From an uncultured delta proteobacterium (GTDB lineage: Bacteria > Desulfobacterota > Binatia > UBA9968): DNA of 64,000 nucleotides. The translations under genes were made by a program, and so were the position numbers. The stretch covers positions 32,001 to 96,000 of the forward strand of contig CAVUZH010000019.1 in assembly GCA_963745835.1 (NCBI GenBank), given 5' to 3'. The notes under the pieces were generated by a model, which was not told where the DNA came from, ran no database searches, and saw only the letters and a list, made by a program, of their open reading frames with translations. Positions 35,147 through 41,500 of this stretch are shown here, one piece after another. How positions within the stretch are numbered: position 1 is the stretch's first letter; each line of letters begins with the position of its first letter.

Positions 35147-37162
35147 ATGGCAAAAAATCTTGAAAGTGCGGCCGAGAACGAGATTATCGCGCTGCGCCAA
35201 CAGCTTGAGAAGCACAACTATCACTACCATGTGCTCGACAATCCGTTGATCAGTGATGCCGAGTACGACCGGCTATTCCACCGCCTGATCGAACTCGAAG
35301 CGGCTCATCCACAATTTGCTGCGCCGAATTCACCAACTCAAAAAATCGGCGCGCCGCCTTTGGACAAGTTCAGGACGGTCCGGCATAGCTTGCCGATGTT
35401 GTCGCTCAGCAATGCCAACGATCAAAAAGATCTCACAGAGTTCGAAGAACGAATAGCCAGGTTTCTAAGGTCAACGGAACCGATCGAATACTTGGTCGAG
35501 CCCAAAATCGACGGTGTTGCCGTGGAGCTGGTCTATGTTGACGGCCGGTTCACTGTTGGCTCAACTCGCGGCGATGGCATCAACGGCGAGGATATCACGC
35601 TCAATCTCAAAACCATCCGCTCGATCCCGCTGGTGTTGCGCGGCGGAACCGGCCCCGCGCCAGAGCGGCTTGAAGTCCGCGGCGAGGTTTTCCTTTCGCG
35701 CGCGGCCTTCCAGAGAATGAATCGTGAACGCGAGGAAGCGGGACAACCGGTCTTCGCCAATCCGCGTAATGCCGCCGCCGGCTCGTTGAAGCAACTCGAT
35801 TCGACATTGACCGCGAAGAGGCCTCTGGATGTCTTTTTTCATGGGACGGGGGTCGTCGCCGGAACCAGCTTGGCGAGTCACAGTGAGTTTCGCGCGGCGA
35901 TTCAGGAGTGGGGCTTAAAGCCGGTGCCGTTTGCGCGTCTCTGCCGCGGCATTGACGATATTCTGAAATTTCGCGACGACATGGAGAGCCGGCGTGATGA
36001 ACTTCCGTACGAGATCGACGGCTTGGTAGTCAAAGTCAATCTTCAAGAGCTGCAACGCCGGCTCGGCGAAATCGCTCGCTCGCCGCGCTGGGCGATTGCC
36101 TATAAATTCAAACCGCGCCAGGCGACAACCCGCATCCTCGACATCCAACCCCAGGTCGGCCGCACCGGCACGTTGACTCCGGTCGCCAGCCTGGAACCCG
36201 TCGCCATCGGTGGCGTCATGGTGAAAAGCGCATCTTTGCACAACATGGATGAAATTAACCGCAAAGACATTCGCATCGGCGACACCGTGTTGGTCGAGCG
36301 CGCCGGCGACGTCATTCCTTACGTGGTGAAAGTGATCACCGAGAAAAGAACCGGGCAAGAGAAACATTTTTGCATGCCCGAGCACTGTCCGGTATGCGGC
36401 GCGGCAGTTTACCGCGAGGAAGGCGAGGCGGCTTACCGCTGCATCGGTATTTCGTGTCCGGCGCAGCTCAAGGAAAGTGTAAAATTTTTCGGTTCGCGCA
36501 ACGCTATGGATATCGAGGGACTTGGTGACAAGCTAATCGATCAACTGGTCGAACGGGGCGCGGTCAAAGATCTCGGCGATCTTTATAGCCTGACAGAAGA
36601 GCAATTGGCGAGCATGGATCGCATGGCGAAAAAATCGGCGCAAAACCTGCTCGCTGCTTTGCAACGCAGCAAGGATTCGACTCTCACTCGTTTTTTGACC
36701 GCTCTGGGCATTCGGCACGTTGGCGAAGCCACCGCGAAACTCTTGACCGAGCACTTCGGCGACCTGAATACGATTATGAATGCAGGGGAGGAGAAATTGA
36801 TGGAGGTGCGCGAGATCGGCCCGGAGGTAGCCAAAAGTATCGCGCGGTTTTTCTCCCAAGACGAAAACCGTCAAGTGATCGTTAAACTTTTAGAGGCCGG
36901 CATTCGCTTCAAGGCGGAGAGTATCAAACGAGGCGCTCTTTCCGGTTCGACGTTCGTCCTCACCGGTGGTCTCGAGACCATGTCGAGGGTGGAAGCGCAG
37001 CGCCGTATCGAAGCCCTGGGCGGCAGGGTGAGCAGCGCCGTCAGCCGCAATAGCAACTATGTTGTCGCTGGTTCGGAGCCGGGCTCCAAACTCAAGAAGG
37101 CTCGAGAGCTCGGCGTCCGAATCATCGATGAGCAAGAGCTGCTAAAGCTCCTGATAACCTGA
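35147..37162 (+). CDS. ligA: NAD-dependent DNA ligase
   Basis: [42 protein letters not shown] zinc finger, BRCT. Confidence 0.99.
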
Positions 37163-37474
37163 TTAGTAACGATCCCGACGGGGTCTGCCGGCACCTCCGC
37201 CGCCACCGAACCCAGACTCTCGCGGCGCCTGCGGACGAGCCTCGCTGACGACCACGTTACGTCCTTCGAAATCGGTTCCGTTCAGAGCGTTAATGGCGCG
37301 CTCGGCTTCAGCATCGGAACTCATCTCGACAAAGCCAAACCCTTTGGAACGGCCCGTGAACTTATCGGTAACGATACGAGCGCTGATCACCGAGCCGTGC
37401 TGCGCAAAATGCTGCTGCAATCTCTCTTCGGTCACCGAATACGGCAGGTTGCCGACATACAATTTGGCTCCCAT
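37163..37474 (-). CDS. RRM RNA-binding protein
   Basis: RNP2 LYVGNL, RNP1 KGFGFVEM, Gly/Arg-rich tail; RBS AGGAGG. Confidence 0.96.
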   Translation of the reverse strand: MGAKLYVGNLPYSVTEERLQQHFAQHGSVISARIVTDKFTGRSKGFGFVEMSSDAEAERAINALNGTDFEGRNVVVSEARPQAPRESGFGGGGGAGRPRRDRY

Positions 37475-37700
37475 CAGACCCTCCTTTTTGATTCACGAGT
37501 GCGCATTTGCGCGGATCGAGTCGCCAAAGGGCAGGGCCTAAATCGGTCTGGAGGACCACGGCACGGGCTCTTCGGTAAACCCTTAGAACCGGCGAAAGCC
37601 TATCGAAACTGCGGGGCGGTTGTCAAATAATTTTGCGGCCGTAATCGCTGAGTCAAACGGCTTGCGCCAGAACGGTGGCTGCGTTAGAAAACCGGCAGCA

Positions 37701-37988
37701 ATGCCAACCATTCCGTCCCATGCGCGTATTCGGTTGATTGTGAAAGGTCGAGTGCAGGGTGTCTATTTTCGTGCCTCCACAGCGCAACAGGCGCGGCACT
37801 TGAGCCTGACCGGCTGGGTCATGAATCGCCACGATGGTTCAGTGGAGCTGGTGGCCGAAGGGCGATCGGAAAGCATCGAAGAACTCATCGCCTGGTGCCG
37901 CCAGGGACCGCCAGGAGCTCGAGTCGATGAAGTGGATTTGCAGCGGCACGGCTTTCGAGGAGAGTTTAATGAATTTCGAATAAGATAA
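37701..37988 (+). CDS. acyP: Acylphosphatase
   Basis: VKGRVQGVYFR, LTGWVMNRHDGSVE, GPPGARV. Confidence 0.95.
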   Translation: MPTIPSHARIRLIVKGRVQGVYFRASTAQQARHLSLTGWVMNRHDGSVELVAEGRSESIEELIAWCRQGPPGARVDEVDLQRHGFRGEFNEFRIR

Positions 37989-38021
37989 CCGACCAGCAGC
38001 TCTCACGAAGCTCGTCGTAAA

Positions 38022-38050
38022 CAACAAGGGGGCACAAAGCCCCCTTGTTG
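38022..38050 (-). terminator. Intrinsic terminator between convergent acyP and the micro-peptide gene
   Basis: Perfect 12-bp stem CAACAAGGGGGC-N5-GCCCCCTTGTTG, continuing into TTT on the minus strand. Confidence 0.8.
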
Positions 38051-38074
38051 CAAGCTGAGATCAACTTCTGCGGA

Positions 38075-38197
38075 TCAGTCCCCTTCGGGCTTCTTGGGTT
38101 TGGGATCTTCGTCTTGGGCGCTCACGGGCGTGGCCAGATCGACGATCGAACTCACGACGGTCACTCCCAACAACAATGCAAAAAGCAATTTTTTCAT
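38075..38197 (-). CDS. 40-aa secreted micro-peptide precursor
   Basis: MKKLLFALLLGVTVVSSIVDLATPVSA|QDEDPKPKKPEGD; RBS AAAGGAGG; sigma54 promoter upstream and terminator downstream. Confidence 0.8.
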   Translation of the reverse strand: MKKLLFALLLGVTVVSSIVDLATPVSAQDEDPKPKKPEGD

Positions 38198-38274
38198 GTC
38201 AGCTCCTCCTTTCTAAATTTTCGAATCTAAAAGTTTGCGGAGTCCCGAATAGGCGATTGGTATTCGGCAGTAGA

Positions 38275-38290
38275 CGCAAGCGACGTGCCC
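38275..38290 (-). promoter_or_regulatory. Sigma54 -24/-12 promoter for the micro-peptide gene
   Basis: GGGCACGTCGCTTGCG versus consensus TGGCACG-N4-TTGC. Confidence 0.75.
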
Positions 38291-38363
38291 GCGAACCTCG
38301 GCTGATGTTCTTGGAATAAACGCGAATGTTCAGTGGCTTTGCGCCGGGCTCGGCAATTCTTTC

Positions 38364-38380
38364 CGTTGTAATATGCAACG
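38364..38380. promoter_or_regulatory. Putative enhancer-binding-protein site (palindrome 1)
   Basis: CGTTGTA-ATA-TGCAACG, a 17-bp imperfect palindrome about 75 bp upstream of the minus-strand -24 box. Confidence 0.55.
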
Positions 38381-38464
38381 CGCTAAGAGCCTGTGCGCCC
38401 CTGGAATAGTCTCAATTGCCTGAATAACCGCGAGAAATTTCAATGATTGTGAAAAACCACACGC

Positions 38465-38481
38465 TGTCGTAAGTTGCCACA
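38465..38481. promoter_or_regulatory. Putative enhancer-binding-protein site (palindrome 2)
   Basis: TGTCGTA-AGT-TGCCACA, a related 17-mer about 75 bp upstream of the plus-strand -24 box. Confidence 0.5.
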
Positions 38482-38553
38482 GAGTTCGTCGATATTTTTA
38501 TGCGAATATGCCGAGACTTTGATTTTTAACGCTATTGCGATTAGCGATGAACG

Positions 38554-38569
38554 CGGTATAGGCCTTGCT
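38554..38569 (+). promoter_or_regulatory. Sigma54 -24/-12 promoter for the two-component operon
   Basis: CGGTATAGGCCTTGCT (GG-N10-GC with TTGC). Confidence 0.6.
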
Positions 38570-38595
38570 CCTTCGATGACTGCAAAACTGCGCAC

Positions 38596-40128
38596 ATGAA
38601 ACTGGGAACCAAATTGATCGTCTCATTGGTCGTAATCATCATGGTGACGATGACTGTTCATGGCTACCTGAGTATTCAGCAGGATCGAGAAAACGCTATG
38701 AGAGAAATGCGGGTCGGCATGCGCGGTTTCTCCCGAGCCATTCACGCTGTTCTCCGGGATCTGTATGCCGATGGTCACAACCTTAATGCGACTCAGGAAT
38801 TCGCCAATACGGTAGGACCACGAGGAAACATCCACGGCCTGATTGTCTATAACGCGGATGCCGAGCGCGTAGCGGTCTCATCCTCGCTTAGGTATCCTGA
38901 CGATTTTGCCGAACTGCACCCTGCTGCCATTCTGGAACTGGATCCGCGACCAGCTCTCAGGGAACCCAACGGGGTAGAGGGTTATGTGCGCGAAAGTGGC
39001 ATTTTGGTCTACTACCGTATCGAGCCGTTTAGCGCGAGTGATGGCCAGATTGCCGGCGCCTTTGTCTTAGCGCGTCAAGGATCTCAGTTGATCAGCAACA
39101 TCGAAGCGCGACGTCAGCGAATCATCGGAACCAGCGCCGCACTGGTCATTCTTTTGTCTGTTCTCATTCTGATCATCGTACGCCGCAATATCACCCTGCC
39201 CATCAATCAGCTGGTGCAACGCGTTCGGGAGATCGGCCGCGGTCGTTGGGAGCAGCGCATCGAAATCAAAGGTCGGGACGAAATTGCCGCGCTGGCTGGA
39301 GAGTTCAACACCATGTCGGAAGAACTCAATCGGAGTTATTCCAAATTCTTGGAAGAGCAGCAACAAAAGCTAAAGCTAGAAAGAGATCTGCGCCACTCTG
39401 AACGCTTGGCATCCGTAGGCCACTTGGCCGCGGGTCTTGCCCATGAGATCGGCACGCCATTGAGCATCGTTCGCGGCAGAGCTGAATACCTGTTGCGCCG
39501 GCCGCGCAGCAGCGAAGAACTCGCCGGCAACCTCGAGGTGATCCGCTCGCAAAGCGACCGCATCACCGCCATCGTGCGTCAACTGCTGGAGTTTTCCCGC
39601 CGTCGGGAACCGATGTTTCGATCGGTCGACCTATCGGAGTTGATCAACCATGTGCGTTATCTTCTGGAACACCAACTATTCGACAAGAGCCTTAAGGTTG
39701 AGATCCATGTCGCGCCGAAGCCGTTGCTCATTCAAGCCGATCCGGATCTGCTCCAACAAGTGTTCATCAATTTGTTCGCCAATTCTCTCCACGCGCTTGG
39801 CCCCGAGGGAGCGATCAAAGTTCGCGCCTCATCCGCGCCCTCTATGAACGGACAAGGCGGCGTTCGAATTGTCTTTGAAGATAACGGGATCGGTATCGCG
39901 CCCGAAATCATTGATCATGTGTTCGATCCTTTTTTTACTACCAAGGATGTCGGCGAAGGAGCCGGACTCGGGCTGGCGGTAACCTACGGCATCATTAAAG
40001 AGCATGGCGGCGAGATTACCGTAGAAAGCGAACCTGGAAAGTTTACTCGCTTCCTCATCCATCTGCCTCAAGGACGACAGAAAGCAGCGCTGATTCAGGG
40101 CAATCTGGAAAATGGCACCCGACTCTAA
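38596..40128 (+). CDS. Sensor histidine kinase (2 TM, periplasmic domain, HAMP, HisKA, HATPase)
   Basis: RDEIAALAGEFNTM, LAAGLAHEIGTPL, QVFINLFANS, DNGIG, FDPFFTTK, GAGLGL. Confidence 0.96.
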   Translation: MKLGTKLIVSLVVIIMVTMTVHGYLSIQQDRENAMREMRVGMRGFSRAIHAVLRDLYADGHNLNATQEFANTVGPRGNIHGLIVYNADAERVAVSSSLRYPDDFAELHPAAILELDPRPALREPNGVEGYVRESGILVYYRIEPFSASDGQIAGAFVLARQGSQLISNIEARRQRIIGTSAALVILLSVLILIIVRRNITLPINQLVQRVREIGRGRWEQRIEIKGRDEIAALAGEFNTMSEELNRSYSKFLEEQQQKLKLERDLRHSERLASVGHLAAGLAHEIGTPLSIVRGRAEYLLRRPRSSEELAGNLEVIRSQSDRITAIVRQLLEFSRRREPMFRSVDLSELINHVRYLLEHQLFDKSLKVEIHVAPKPLLIQADPDLLQQVFINLFANSLHALGPEGAIKVRASSAPSMNGQGGVRIVFEDNGIGIAPEIIDHVFDPFFTTKDVGEGAGLGLAVTYGIIKEHGGEITVESEPGKFTRFLIHLPQGRQKAALIQGNLENGTRL

Positions 40129-41500
40129 ACTACACGCCGCTACGCGCGGCCGGATCCTGATTGTCGATGATGATCGGCAGATGTGCCAGCTGCTCGTCGA
40201 TGTGCTGGCCGAAGAAGGCCATCTCGTTGAAGCAGTGCATGACGGCCGATCCGCGCTGGAGAAGTTTCGCGCAAACGGTTGCGACTTGATGATCACCGAT
40301 TTGATGATGCCACGAATGCGCGGCACGGAACTGGTTAAAGAGGTTAAAGGGATCGATCCCGACGCGGTAATTCTTTTGATCACGGCCTTCGGCAGCATTG
40401 AAAGCGCAGTCGAGGCAATGAAAGCGGGCGCCTTTCATTATGTGACTAAACCGTTTCGCACCGACGAAATGATTTTACATGTGAGCCGCGGGCTGCAGCA
40501 GCGCCGGCTCTGTGAAGAAGTGCAGCGGCTTCGCAGTGAGATACTGGAGCGCAATAGTTTTGAGAACATCATCGGCAAGAGCGAGAAGATGCGGGAAGTT
40601 TTCTCAATCGTCCGGCAAACCAGCGATCTTGCCGCCAATGTGCTCATCCTCGGTGAAAGCGGCACCGGCAAGGAAATGGTCGCGCGCGCGATTCACCATC
40701 ATAGCTGGCGCGCCCAAGGGCCCTTTATACCGCTCAACTGCGCTGCCGTCCCGGAGACCCTGCTTGAGAGCGAGCTCTTTGGCTATTTGCGCGGCACGTT
40801 CACCGATGCGCGCAAAGACCGGCGCGGACTCTTCCAGGAAGCCAGCGGCGGCATCCTTTTTCTCGATGAAATCAGCGAGATTCCGATCAACCTGCAGGCC
40901 AAGCTGTTACGCGTCATCGAAGATAAGGAAGTGAGGCCGTTGGGAGCCAATCAGTCGGAAAAAGTCGACACACGCATTGTTTCAGCCTGCAACCTCGATC
41001 TTGAACATTTGGTCGAACAAGGCCGGTTCCGGCAGGACCTCTATTACCGGCTGAATGTTATTCGCATCGAATTGCCGCCGCTACGCGAGCGGTCGGAGGA
41101 TATTCCGCTTCTCGCAGAGCACTTCTTGCACAAATTTGCGCCTCAGGCGAAACGAGAGATAGACTCCATCGACCAGGAGGCGCTGGCTGCGTTGATGAAT
41201 TATCGCTGGCCGGGGAATGTGCGGGAGTTGGAGCACACCATCGAGCGAGCGGTGCTGCTTGGCAAAGAGATCAGCATCGGCTTGAAAGATTTGCCGTTGC
41301 AGTCGCAGGTTACTGATGGAAGTTCTGTGCCGCTCGCGGCCGCTGTGGCAAACGGATACACCCTTAGAGATCTGGAAAGAGAATATATTTTGCGGGTCAT
41401 CGAGAGCACGTATGGGAATAAAGCCGAAGCGGCTCGGATACTGGGCGTAGATCGGACGACCCTGTATCGAAAATTAGAAGAGTACAAGGTCAAGACTTAA
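40112..41500 (+). CDS. Sigma54-dependent response regulator (NtrC/ZraR family)
   Basis: REC domain, GESGTGKE, ESELFG, GTFTDA (GAFTGA-loop variant), FLDEI, FRQDLYYRLNV, WPGNVREL, Fis-type HTH. Confidence 0.96.
   Translation: MAPDSKLHAATRGRILIVDDDRQMCQLLVDVLAEEGHLVEAVHDGRSALEKFRANGCDLMITDLMMPRMRGTELVKEVKGIDPDAVILLITAFGSIESAVEAMKAGAFHYVTKPFRTDEMILHVSRGLQQRRLCEEVQRLRSEILERNSFENIIGKSEKMREVFSIVRQTSDLAANVLILGESGTGKEMVARAIHHHSWRAQGPFIPLNCAAVPETLLESELFGYLRGTFTDARKDRRGLFQEASGGILFLDEISEIPINLQAKLLRVIEDKEVRPLGANQSEKVDTRIVSACNLDLEHLVEQGRFRQDLYYRLNVIRIELPPLRERSEDIPLLAEHFLHKFAPQAKREIDSIDQEALAALMNYRWPGNVRELEHTIERAVLLGKEISIGLKDLPLQSQVTDGSSVPLAAAVANGYTLRDLEREYILRVIESTYGNKAEAARILGVDRTTLYRKLEEYKVKT

Follow-up and report, generated by a model that had tools for sequence, protein, structure and literature searches.

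A 40-codon gene tied to a sensor kinase and an NtrC-type regulator in one family of Candidatus Binatia: a candidate envelope-signalling module with tiny exported products

Organization of the locus

In a 64-kb stretch of contig CAVUZH010000019.1 (the whole stretch analysed, hereafter the window), which belongs to a 97% complete metagenome-assembled genome of Candidatus Binatia, a 40-codon open reading frame (ORF) on the minus strand, here called the micro-peptide gene, is flanked by a convergent acylphosphatase gene on one side and, on the other, by a divergent operon for a sensor histidine kinase and an NtrC-type regulator. As judged from sequence comparison, these three genes, with their own promoters and enhancers, form a self-contained module of about 3.5 kb that belongs to one family of Candidatus Binatia. 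The micro-peptide gene (38075-38197, minus strand) was identified by ORF calling, has an ATG start and 40 codons plus a stop, and was intact in all relatives examined. The kinase gene (38596-40128, plus strand) encodes 510 residues, which comprise a first transmembrane helix (TM1), a periplasmic part with a single PDC/PAS-like domain (approximately residues 28-175), a second transmembrane helix (TM2) and HAMP, HisKA and HATPase domains. It is followed by the gene for an enhancer-binding response regulator of 462 residues (40112-41500, plus strand), with a receiver domain, a sigma-54 AAA+ domain, an AAA lid and a Fis-type helix-turn-helix (HTH_8), whose start overlaps the kinase stop by 17 nt. 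Both sets of domains agreed, in a domain search, with an earlier description of the locus made from the sequence without database searches (hereafter the original prediction).

Conservation and distribution of the micro-peptide gene

The 40-codon ORF is a real, conserved coding gene and is strictly linked to the kinase and the NtrC-type regulator. Full-length orthologs of the kinase (58-100% identity) were found in 17 of 41 related genomes, all 17 from the family of the window, and in none of the 16 genomes of two sister families. Upstream flank was available for 15 of the 17 loci, and in all 15 a divergent ORF of 40-49 codons and of the same build was present beside the kinase; the original prediction had proposed a search for small ORFs next to kinase orthologs as a check, and this search went in its favour. 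In the eight family genomes without a kinase ortholog among the 41, the peptide was not found. When a profile of the small ORFs was applied to 90 reference genomes of the family, one copy was detected in 27 of them, and 43 of the 90 possessed a kinase ortholog, again one copy each. The 27 include two unpublished genomes, G018 and G072, and the 43 include these two and the likewise unpublished G051; the conclusions are independent of them, and one row of alignment A1 comes from G018. No paralog of the micro-peptide could be detected by profile search in the genome of the window, and 399 other genomes across the phylum gave no convincing profile match, the three weak ones being located inside ORFs of 487-921 codons.

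Pairwise comparison of 25 family members revealed 4281, 2715 and 7415 differences at the first, second and third codon positions, respectively. Since third positions carry most of the differences, conservation acts at the protein level, with synonymous drift. A large protein collection contained 287 relatives of the micro-peptide, all of them unnamed or 'hypothetical'. Longer or fused forms were also considered, and the 23 longer database entries proved to be upstream over-extensions or one read-through, with no fused form among them; the possibility raised at the outset that the ORF is a truncated longer gene is not borne out. The 40-residue product had no match in Pfam or NCBIfam and no usable neighbour in the ESM Atlas, and no Rfam match was present in 37000-39000. 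Neither this family nor this arrangement was found described in a collection of open-access full texts, in agreement with the earlier statement that the arrangement is undescribed, and a term search of a paper on the Desulfovibrio sigma-54 regulome gave no like case.

Predicted export and the mature tail

The precursor consists of Lys-Lys, a hydrophobic stretch, a predicted cleavage site and a charged Pro-rich tail. Codons 1-27 (38117-38197, minus strand) form a predicted Sec signal peptide with the cut placed after Ala27 by the -3/-1 residues, and codons 28-40 (38078-38116, minus strand) would yield a mature peptide of 13 residues that starts with Gln, is acidic and Pro-rich and has no Cys, His or Trp. 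The cleavage motif was counted in the 118 carriers among the best 120 database relatives. Position -1 was Ala in all 118, position -3 was Ser in 113, Thr in two, Ala in two and Val in one, and position +1 was Gln in 92, Asp in 24 and Glu in two. The invariant Ala at -1, together with Ser, Thr, Ala or Val at -3, is consistent with a substrate of signal peptidase I; the basic n-region, the hydrophobic core and the small -3/-1 residues of such substrates are all present, and the enzyme is encoded in the genome. Export of the precursor with cleavage is therefore predicted as probable.

The number of residues ahead of the predicted cut was 30 in 107 of these 118 relatives, and the predicted mature part had 13-23 residues (median 15), with a composition of 32% Pro, 23% Glu, 12% Lys, 10% Asp and 9% Gln, Cys, His and Trp being absent. 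The shortest mature form (13 residues) is that of the genus of the window, and tails of approximately 25-56 residues occur in a few lineages. Leader and tail were equally conserved. The tail is of low complexity and conserved across genera, with a Gln-Glu-Glu-Pro start and Lys-Pro-Glu-Lys-Pro near the end. No glutaminyl cyclase of the plant/bacterial type (PF05096) could be detected in the 97% complete genome, so that pyroglutamate at +1 is speculative.

A lipoprotein variant in relatives

To compare more loci, we pooled 25 genome loci with the metagenome loci that offer 600 nt or more of flank (61 of 80), which gave 86 loci. Many of the metagenome loci are near-duplicates (77 distinct kinase sequences among 85 rows), so the counts given for this pool are not independent. 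In 20 of the 61 metagenome loci the profile search detected no peptide, yet these loci were not empty: another micro-ORF was present, of 40-53 codons, with a lipobox, a Gly/Ser-rich mature part of about 20 residues and a charged end, behind the same sigma-54 promoter and at the same distance from the kinase as the peptide gene (for example, L143:690-827 and L188:720-851, both minus strand). It had no Pfam match. Peptide alone was found at 60 of the 86 loci, lipoprotein alone at 18, and both in tandem under one promoter, in either order, at seven; the lipobox micro-ORF is thus genetically tied to the kinase at 25 loci (18 alone and seven with the peptide). The one remaining locus had neither. 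Overall, 85 of the 86 assessable kinase loci possessed at least one micro-protein gene and a peptide-facing sigma-54 motif, the exception being a single decayed locus. Members of this second micro-ORF family occur at the related loci L143-L152, L180, L183-L202, L215, L218-L227 and L230-L231. In a tree of kinase N-termini, loci without the peptide fell into at least three separate clades, and the label requires at least five changes. The kinase-bearing reference genomes without a peptide match were sorted in the same way: 11 were of the lipoprotein type, two had a diverged peptide (in one of them behind a lipoprotein-like ORF) and in four the sequence stops too near the gene for a type to be assigned.

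What is new here is that the identity of the micro-protein varies between loci, and the window represents the peptide-only state. The constant feature, according to these comparisons, is a putative sigma-54-driven locus for one or two tiny, predicted exported and disordered proteins beside the kinase.

Some further observations were made on the lipoprotein. The locus with neither gene, L145, retains a 5'-truncated lipoprotein remnant without promoter, about 220-330 nt from the kinase start on the peptide-sense strand, and the peptide-only locus L017 has an apparently frameshifted lipoprotein copy between the promoter and the intact peptide gene; each could reflect decay or an assembly error. 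In the genome of the window itself, sigma-54-like motifs precede small lipoprotein ORFs on contigs C3 (near 640264 and 1223139) and C25 (near 193302), two of which encode paralogous proteins of about 75 residues and one a Gly/Ser-rich protein of 89 residues. The last was considered as a second module of this kind and rejected, no large kinase or activator ORF being located nearby.

Promoters, enhancer-like sites and transcripts

The original prediction had described a complete sigma-54-driven unit for the micro-peptide, with promoter, strong ribosome-binding site, ORF and terminator, together with a second promoter facing the kinase operon and palindromes between the two, and all of these elements could be located. 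The promoter of the micro-peptide gene, an exact GGCAC-N5-TTGC with the -24 GG and -12 GC of the sigma-54 type (38276-38289, minus strand), is conserved: the peptide-facing motif occurred at all 15 loci compared initially and at 85 of the 86 in the pool. It is the sole match in the window, where approximately 0.77 would be expected by chance, so that the motif alone is not significant. A purine-rich Shine-Dalgarno site, conserved in the alignment, lies 5-8 nt ahead of the ATG (38203-38213, minus strand). The terminator is a hairpin with perfect 12-nt arms (38022-38033 and 38039-38050) and a 5-nt loop (38022-38050), which the terminator scan flags on the minus strand and which is common to the micro-peptide transcript and the convergent acylphosphatase gene.

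A sigma-54-like GG-N10-GC motif also faces the kinase operon, 28-41 nt ahead of the kinase ATG (38555-38568, plus strand), and is conserved in the clade of the window only. It was present at 13 of the 15 initial loci, and at 43 of the 60 peptide-only, one of the 18 lipoprotein-only and none of the seven two-gene loci. Between the promoters, alignment revealed an enhancer-like exact palindrome, GTTG-N7-CAAC (38365-38379), about 85 nt upstream of the peptide promoter, and a conserved block of 48 nt (38438-38484) containing two imperfect palindromes (38448-38461 and 38464-38482) whose arms are only 4-5 nt and which the repeat scan did not list. GTTG-N7-CAAC is expected 0.84 times by chance per window, and a strict site model recovered it at only 14 of the 86 loci; the 48-nt block was kept at 83 of the 86. 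Because the promoter and palindrome motifs each occur at about chance frequency per 64 kb, the case rests on position and conservation. In the intergenic alignment, the kinase-facing motif, the 48-nt block, GTTG-N7-CAAC, the peptide promoter and the ribosome site stand out as five conserved islands. The enhancer block matched this locus alone in the genome of the window (E-value 3e-8; next 0.84), which weakly hints that the regulator may have few other targets. Counting half-sites upstream of 243 sigma-54-like motifs detected nothing, not even this locus, the test being too strict. A scan of 37900-38700 for sigma-70 promoters found none.

Two observations on this region should be mentioned. 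An inverted repeat of 7 bp with a 9-nt loop (38245-38267) lies at the predicted 5' end of the mRNA and is kept only within the genus of the window. In L016, in L017 and in most loci of the lipoprotein type, the palindrome GCAATTGC is contained in the -12 region of the peptide promoter, about 210-300 nt from the kinase start, so that the opposite strand also reads GG-N10-GC; a single such site might serve both directions in lineages without the kinase-proximal motif.

For a check at the RNA level, contigs of four metatranscriptome runs were compared with 37500-39299. Contigs from these libraries covered the ORF at 38083-38233 without mismatch and also extended over the promoter/enhancer region (38206-38546 and 38272-38479). 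Those over 38206-38546 came from runs X15 and X17 and could represent DNA carry-over or transcription from an unseen promoter.

Properties of the kinase and the regulator

In a structural model of kinase residues 1-260 (mean predicted local distance difference test score 77), TM1 continues as a long helix, and a five-stranded domain of the PAS/PDC type, TM2 and HAMP are also present. The best structural matches of this sensor model were extracellular domains of WalK and other PAS/Cache sensors, and a sequence search against solved structures matched only the HAMP part. The top curated models for kinase and regulator were AtoS/ZraS and AtoC/NtrC/ZraR, with scores far below every curated cut-off; against ZraS/ZraR, the kinase reached 202.7 bits versus 479 and the regulator 394.3 versus 760. 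The regulator matched Sigma54_activat with an E-value of 8e-69. Its sigma-54 contact loop (40789-40806, residues 227-232) has the sequence G-T-F-T-D-A in the window, and most orthologs have G-A-F-T-D-A: Phe-Thr is retained, Asp stands in place of Gly at the fifth position in 17 of 17 orthologs, and Thr is the second residue in the genus of the window.

A complex prediction with two kinase N-terminal chains (residues 1-215) and the 40-residue precursor scored 0.01 and, having no controls, weighs neither way. Co-variation between the sensor domain and the micro-protein, another check proposed in the original prediction, did not come out: two candidate columns were rejected, one being an Arg shifted by one position and the other following phylogeny. 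As a separate observation, the same paralogous kinase match in three genomes of the genus (G001:C256, G004:C294 and G006:C24) has one in-frame TGA in an open frame of about 900 codons; two neighbouring genes or the recoding of a stop could account for it.

Neighbouring genes and host genome

The gene order ligA, RRM protein, acylphosphatase, micro-gene, kinase and regulator is conserved, with rsmI as a further neighbour, so that the module is vertically inherited and not mobile. In the window, the flanking genes encode an RRM-type RNA-binding protein with a Gly/Arg-rich tail (37163-37474, minus strand) and the acylphosphatase (37620-37988, plus strand), and throughout most of the family both are syntenic with the module. 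Among the neighbours of the module (ligA, RRM protein, acylphosphatase and rsmI), no gene for export or processing of the micro-peptide was found. The genome encodes rpoN on the same contig as the module (Sigma54_DBD match of 210.5 bits), two proteins of the Omp85 family and signal peptidase I, which together indicate that the host is a sigma-54-proficient diderm.

A proposed local envelope module and the alternatives

On the basis of these results, we tentatively regard the locus as an envelope-signalling module of the ZraP/zraSR kind, whose dedicated output would be one or two very small, disordered proteins of the envelope with a local action, most probably exerted on the kinase. The membrane kinase, with its periplasmic sensor of the PDC type, would phosphorylate the NtrC-type activator, which would bind the conserved palindromic sites between the genes and, together with sigma-54, fire the promoter of a monocistronic mRNA of about 250 nt. 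The regulator probably activates the micro-peptide promoter. The product of 40 residues, presumably strongly translated, would be exported by Sec and cut by signal peptidase I after the invariant small-x-Ala site, and a disordered, acidic peptide rich in Pro, Glu and Lys, of 13 residues here and 13-23 in relatives, would be released into the periplasm. In the clade of the window, the activator might also drive its own operon from the second promoter of the sigma-54 type. Finally, the micro-protein would work locally in the envelope, its likeliest target being the periplasmic domain of the kinase, as an accessory or feedback partner. Action of the micro-peptide on the adjacent kinase, which is argued by analogy, is possible although somewhat doubtful, and the micro-protein is perhaps the only output of the system. 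Feedback is suggested because the same logic is found in ZraP acting on ZraS, MgrB on PhoQ and QseG on QseE, and local action because a lipid-anchored micro-protein replaces the peptide (18 loci) or accompanies it (seven loci) under the same promoter.

Several points weigh against this reading. Binding of the micro-peptide is conjectural, and its cleavage and its transcription from the promoter are deduced indirectly; the contigs from the RNA libraries span the promoter and enhancer as well as the ORF, so that they may be DNA carry-over. One or two residues of the regulator's contact loop deviate from the canonical GAFTGA, and most lipoprotein-type loci have no kinase-facing sigma-54 motif. 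The sensor domain shows no convincing co-variation with the type of micro-protein, and the occurrence of unlike tails, one rich in Pro, Glu and Lys and the other in Gly and Ser, on the same conserved sensor argues against a sequence-specific ligand. Moreover, a two-component system that only tunes itself would have no output, and if the regulon is truly so small, the peptide must also do something else.

This last point leads to a different explanation, which we consider somewhat unlikely, namely that the micro-peptide and its lipoprotein variant are a pure bulk effector made in large amounts under stress, a small, protease-resistant, charged, disordered periplasmic solute or surface coat with neither a specific partner nor feedback. 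Such a role would fit tails of low complexity that range from 13 to about 56 residues in length, come in two apparently interchangeable compositions and have no Cys, His, Trp or predicted fold, and it would fit the very strong ribosome site. No other regulon member was detected, in what was a weak search, so that the peptide itself could be the output, and a peptide of 1.5-2.5 kDa would not pass general porins, by analogy with osmoregulated periplasmic glucans. However, the conserved end motifs and the near-fixed 30 residues ahead of the cut (107 of 118) suggest more than bulk properties. The equal conservation of the first 30 residues and of the tail could instead mean that the product stays uncleaved as a membrane-anchored micro-protein (N-terminus in, C-terminus out), whose helix packs against the transmembrane helices of the kinase as in MgrB. 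Gly13, Asn15, Ser19, Pro26 and Ser28, invariant or nearly so, lie along one helix face, the alternative product of relatives is lipid-anchored in the membrane, and the closest structural matches of the sensor are those of WalK, which is controlled by membrane partners. We nevertheless find an anchored product unlikely, since the strongly hydrophobic core has only about 11 residues and is followed by a polar stretch, Pro at -5 and the invariant small-x-Ala, a classic context for signal peptidase I, and since neither MgrB nor any other family was matched in Pfam.

The original prediction had also brought in peptide ligands, feedback and pheromone-type loops. Of this, an exported micro-peptide linked to the kinase has stood, and the pheromone part has been weakened. 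A diffusible pheromone that the adjacent kinase senses, in a quorum-sensing loop of a diderm, now appears a highly improbable role for the peptide. A precursor of about 40 residues with an auto-activated receptor operon does resemble the logic of ComC/ComDE and Phr, cyclisation of Gln at +1 could make a secreted peptide more stable, and the loop appears closed, the enhancer block being unique in the genome. On the other hand, the locus lacks a linked gene for export or processing, the search for glutaminyl cyclase was negative, a charged peptide of at least 1.5 kDa has no evident route across the outer membrane, and the mature part is conserved and of low complexity across genera instead of being diversified into pherotypes. 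At 18 loci the peptide is replaced by the lipid-anchored variant, which cannot diffuse. A paper on small-protein quorum sensing in a Gram-negative bacterium is marked as retracted. A more far-reaching idea, in which the kinase, the activator and the tiny exported proteins make up a closed periplasmic peptide-signalling loop in a diderm, with peptide and lipoprotein as ligands of the PDC domain and, possibly, an acidic C-terminus recognised as a dicarboxylate-like group, is decidedly unlikely. If it were true, the cell would sense how much of its own secreted peptide is present or intact, as a measure of periplasmic volume, leakage, proteolysis or, if the peptide escapes, cell density. There is hardly any chance, finally, that the transcript is mainly a regulatory RNA with a secondary ORF. 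Such RNAs are known beside regulators of this kind (glmY beside glrK and qrr1 beside luxO), and a short monocistronic sigma-54 transcript of about 250 nt is predicted next to its own activator here, with a 7-bp hairpin at its predicted 5' end. Yet conservation is at the protein level with synonymous drift, the leader is unconserved outside the genus save for the ribosome site, and Rfam gave no match.

The local envelope module thus remains the reading that we prefer. A partner of 13-23 disordered residues, interchangeable with a lipopeptide of about 20 residues, would be the smallest kinase partner described; the accessory proteins known to tune kinases are folded proteins (ZraP, CpxP and QseG) or membrane micro-proteins (MgrB). 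Should the peptide turn out to be a genuine ligand, the module would offer one of the few instances of a PDC domain that senses a peptide in a diderm; should it be a bulk solute of the envelope and nothing more, it would represent a stress output of a new kind. The source is a soil lineage without cultures, in which signalling is almost uncharted, and the compactness of the module makes its logic testable in a surrogate host.

Comparison with known systems

As here, the Gram-positive pheromone loops ComC/ComDE, AgrD/AgrCA and Phr combine a precursor of some 40 residues with an adjacent kinase/regulator pair that activates its own expression. Unlike them, the present locus has no dedicated exporter or protease gene, its regulator is of the NtrC type and its host is a diderm; the mature part is conserved and of low complexity, and there is an alternative with a lipid anchor. 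The exporter or processing enzyme linked to such loops was absent, and instead of a diversified mature peptide versus a conserved leader, leader and mature part were equally conserved.

Another parallel is offered by the lipoprotein QseG, which, according to PMC6075780, interacts in the periplasm with the kinase QseE, whose partner is a sigma-54 activator. Like QseG and QseE-QseF (GlrK-GlrR), relatives of the window have a lipobox-bearing envelope micro-protein tied to the kinase locus. QseG is a full-size protein encoded inside the operon. The lipoprotein of the relatives, in contrast, has a mature part of only about 20 residues and a divergent gene with its own promoter, and Pfam, by which alone homology was checked, gave none. 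In size, the peptide resembles MgrB, described in PMC2789325 and 10.1101/438515 as a member of the PhoP/PhoQ regulon with 47 residues that inhibits PhoQ. Both products have fewer than 50 residues, although for the present one regulon membership is a probable prediction and feedback a conjecture. MgrB is an uncleaved membrane protein, is encoded away from phoPQ and is not known to depend on sigma-54, whereas a sigma-54 promoter is found here and a soluble, cleaved peptide is predicted; the two are unrelated in sequence, and the homology that would accompany an uncleaved helix of the MgrB type was not seen in Pfam.

The system closest in layout is zraP/zraSR of Escherichia coli and Salmonella. 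As stated in PMC4987338, zraP and zraSR have divergent sigma-54 promoters, and ZraP is named a repressor of ZraSR. Both loci have an operon for a kinase and an NtrC-type regulator that is divergent from a gene for a small exported protein, with divergent sigma-54 promoters under the activator of the system itself; this control is predicted for our locus, where only part of the family retains the kinase-facing promoter. The product of zraP is a folded chaperone of the periplasm that binds zinc, whereas the product here is a predicted disordered peptide of 13-23 residues without metal ligands or a Pfam match, and a 40-residue precursor with no Pfam or NCBIfam match does not group with the accessory proteins of the ZraP/CpxP/Spy family. 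The sensor, with a WalK-like single PDC domain, also differs from ZraS, and kinase and regulator score far below the ZraS/ZraR cut-offs. Thus, the divergent layout of the zraP/zraSR kind that the original prediction had recognised is borne out, with a product predicted to be a short disordered peptide instead of a folded protein.

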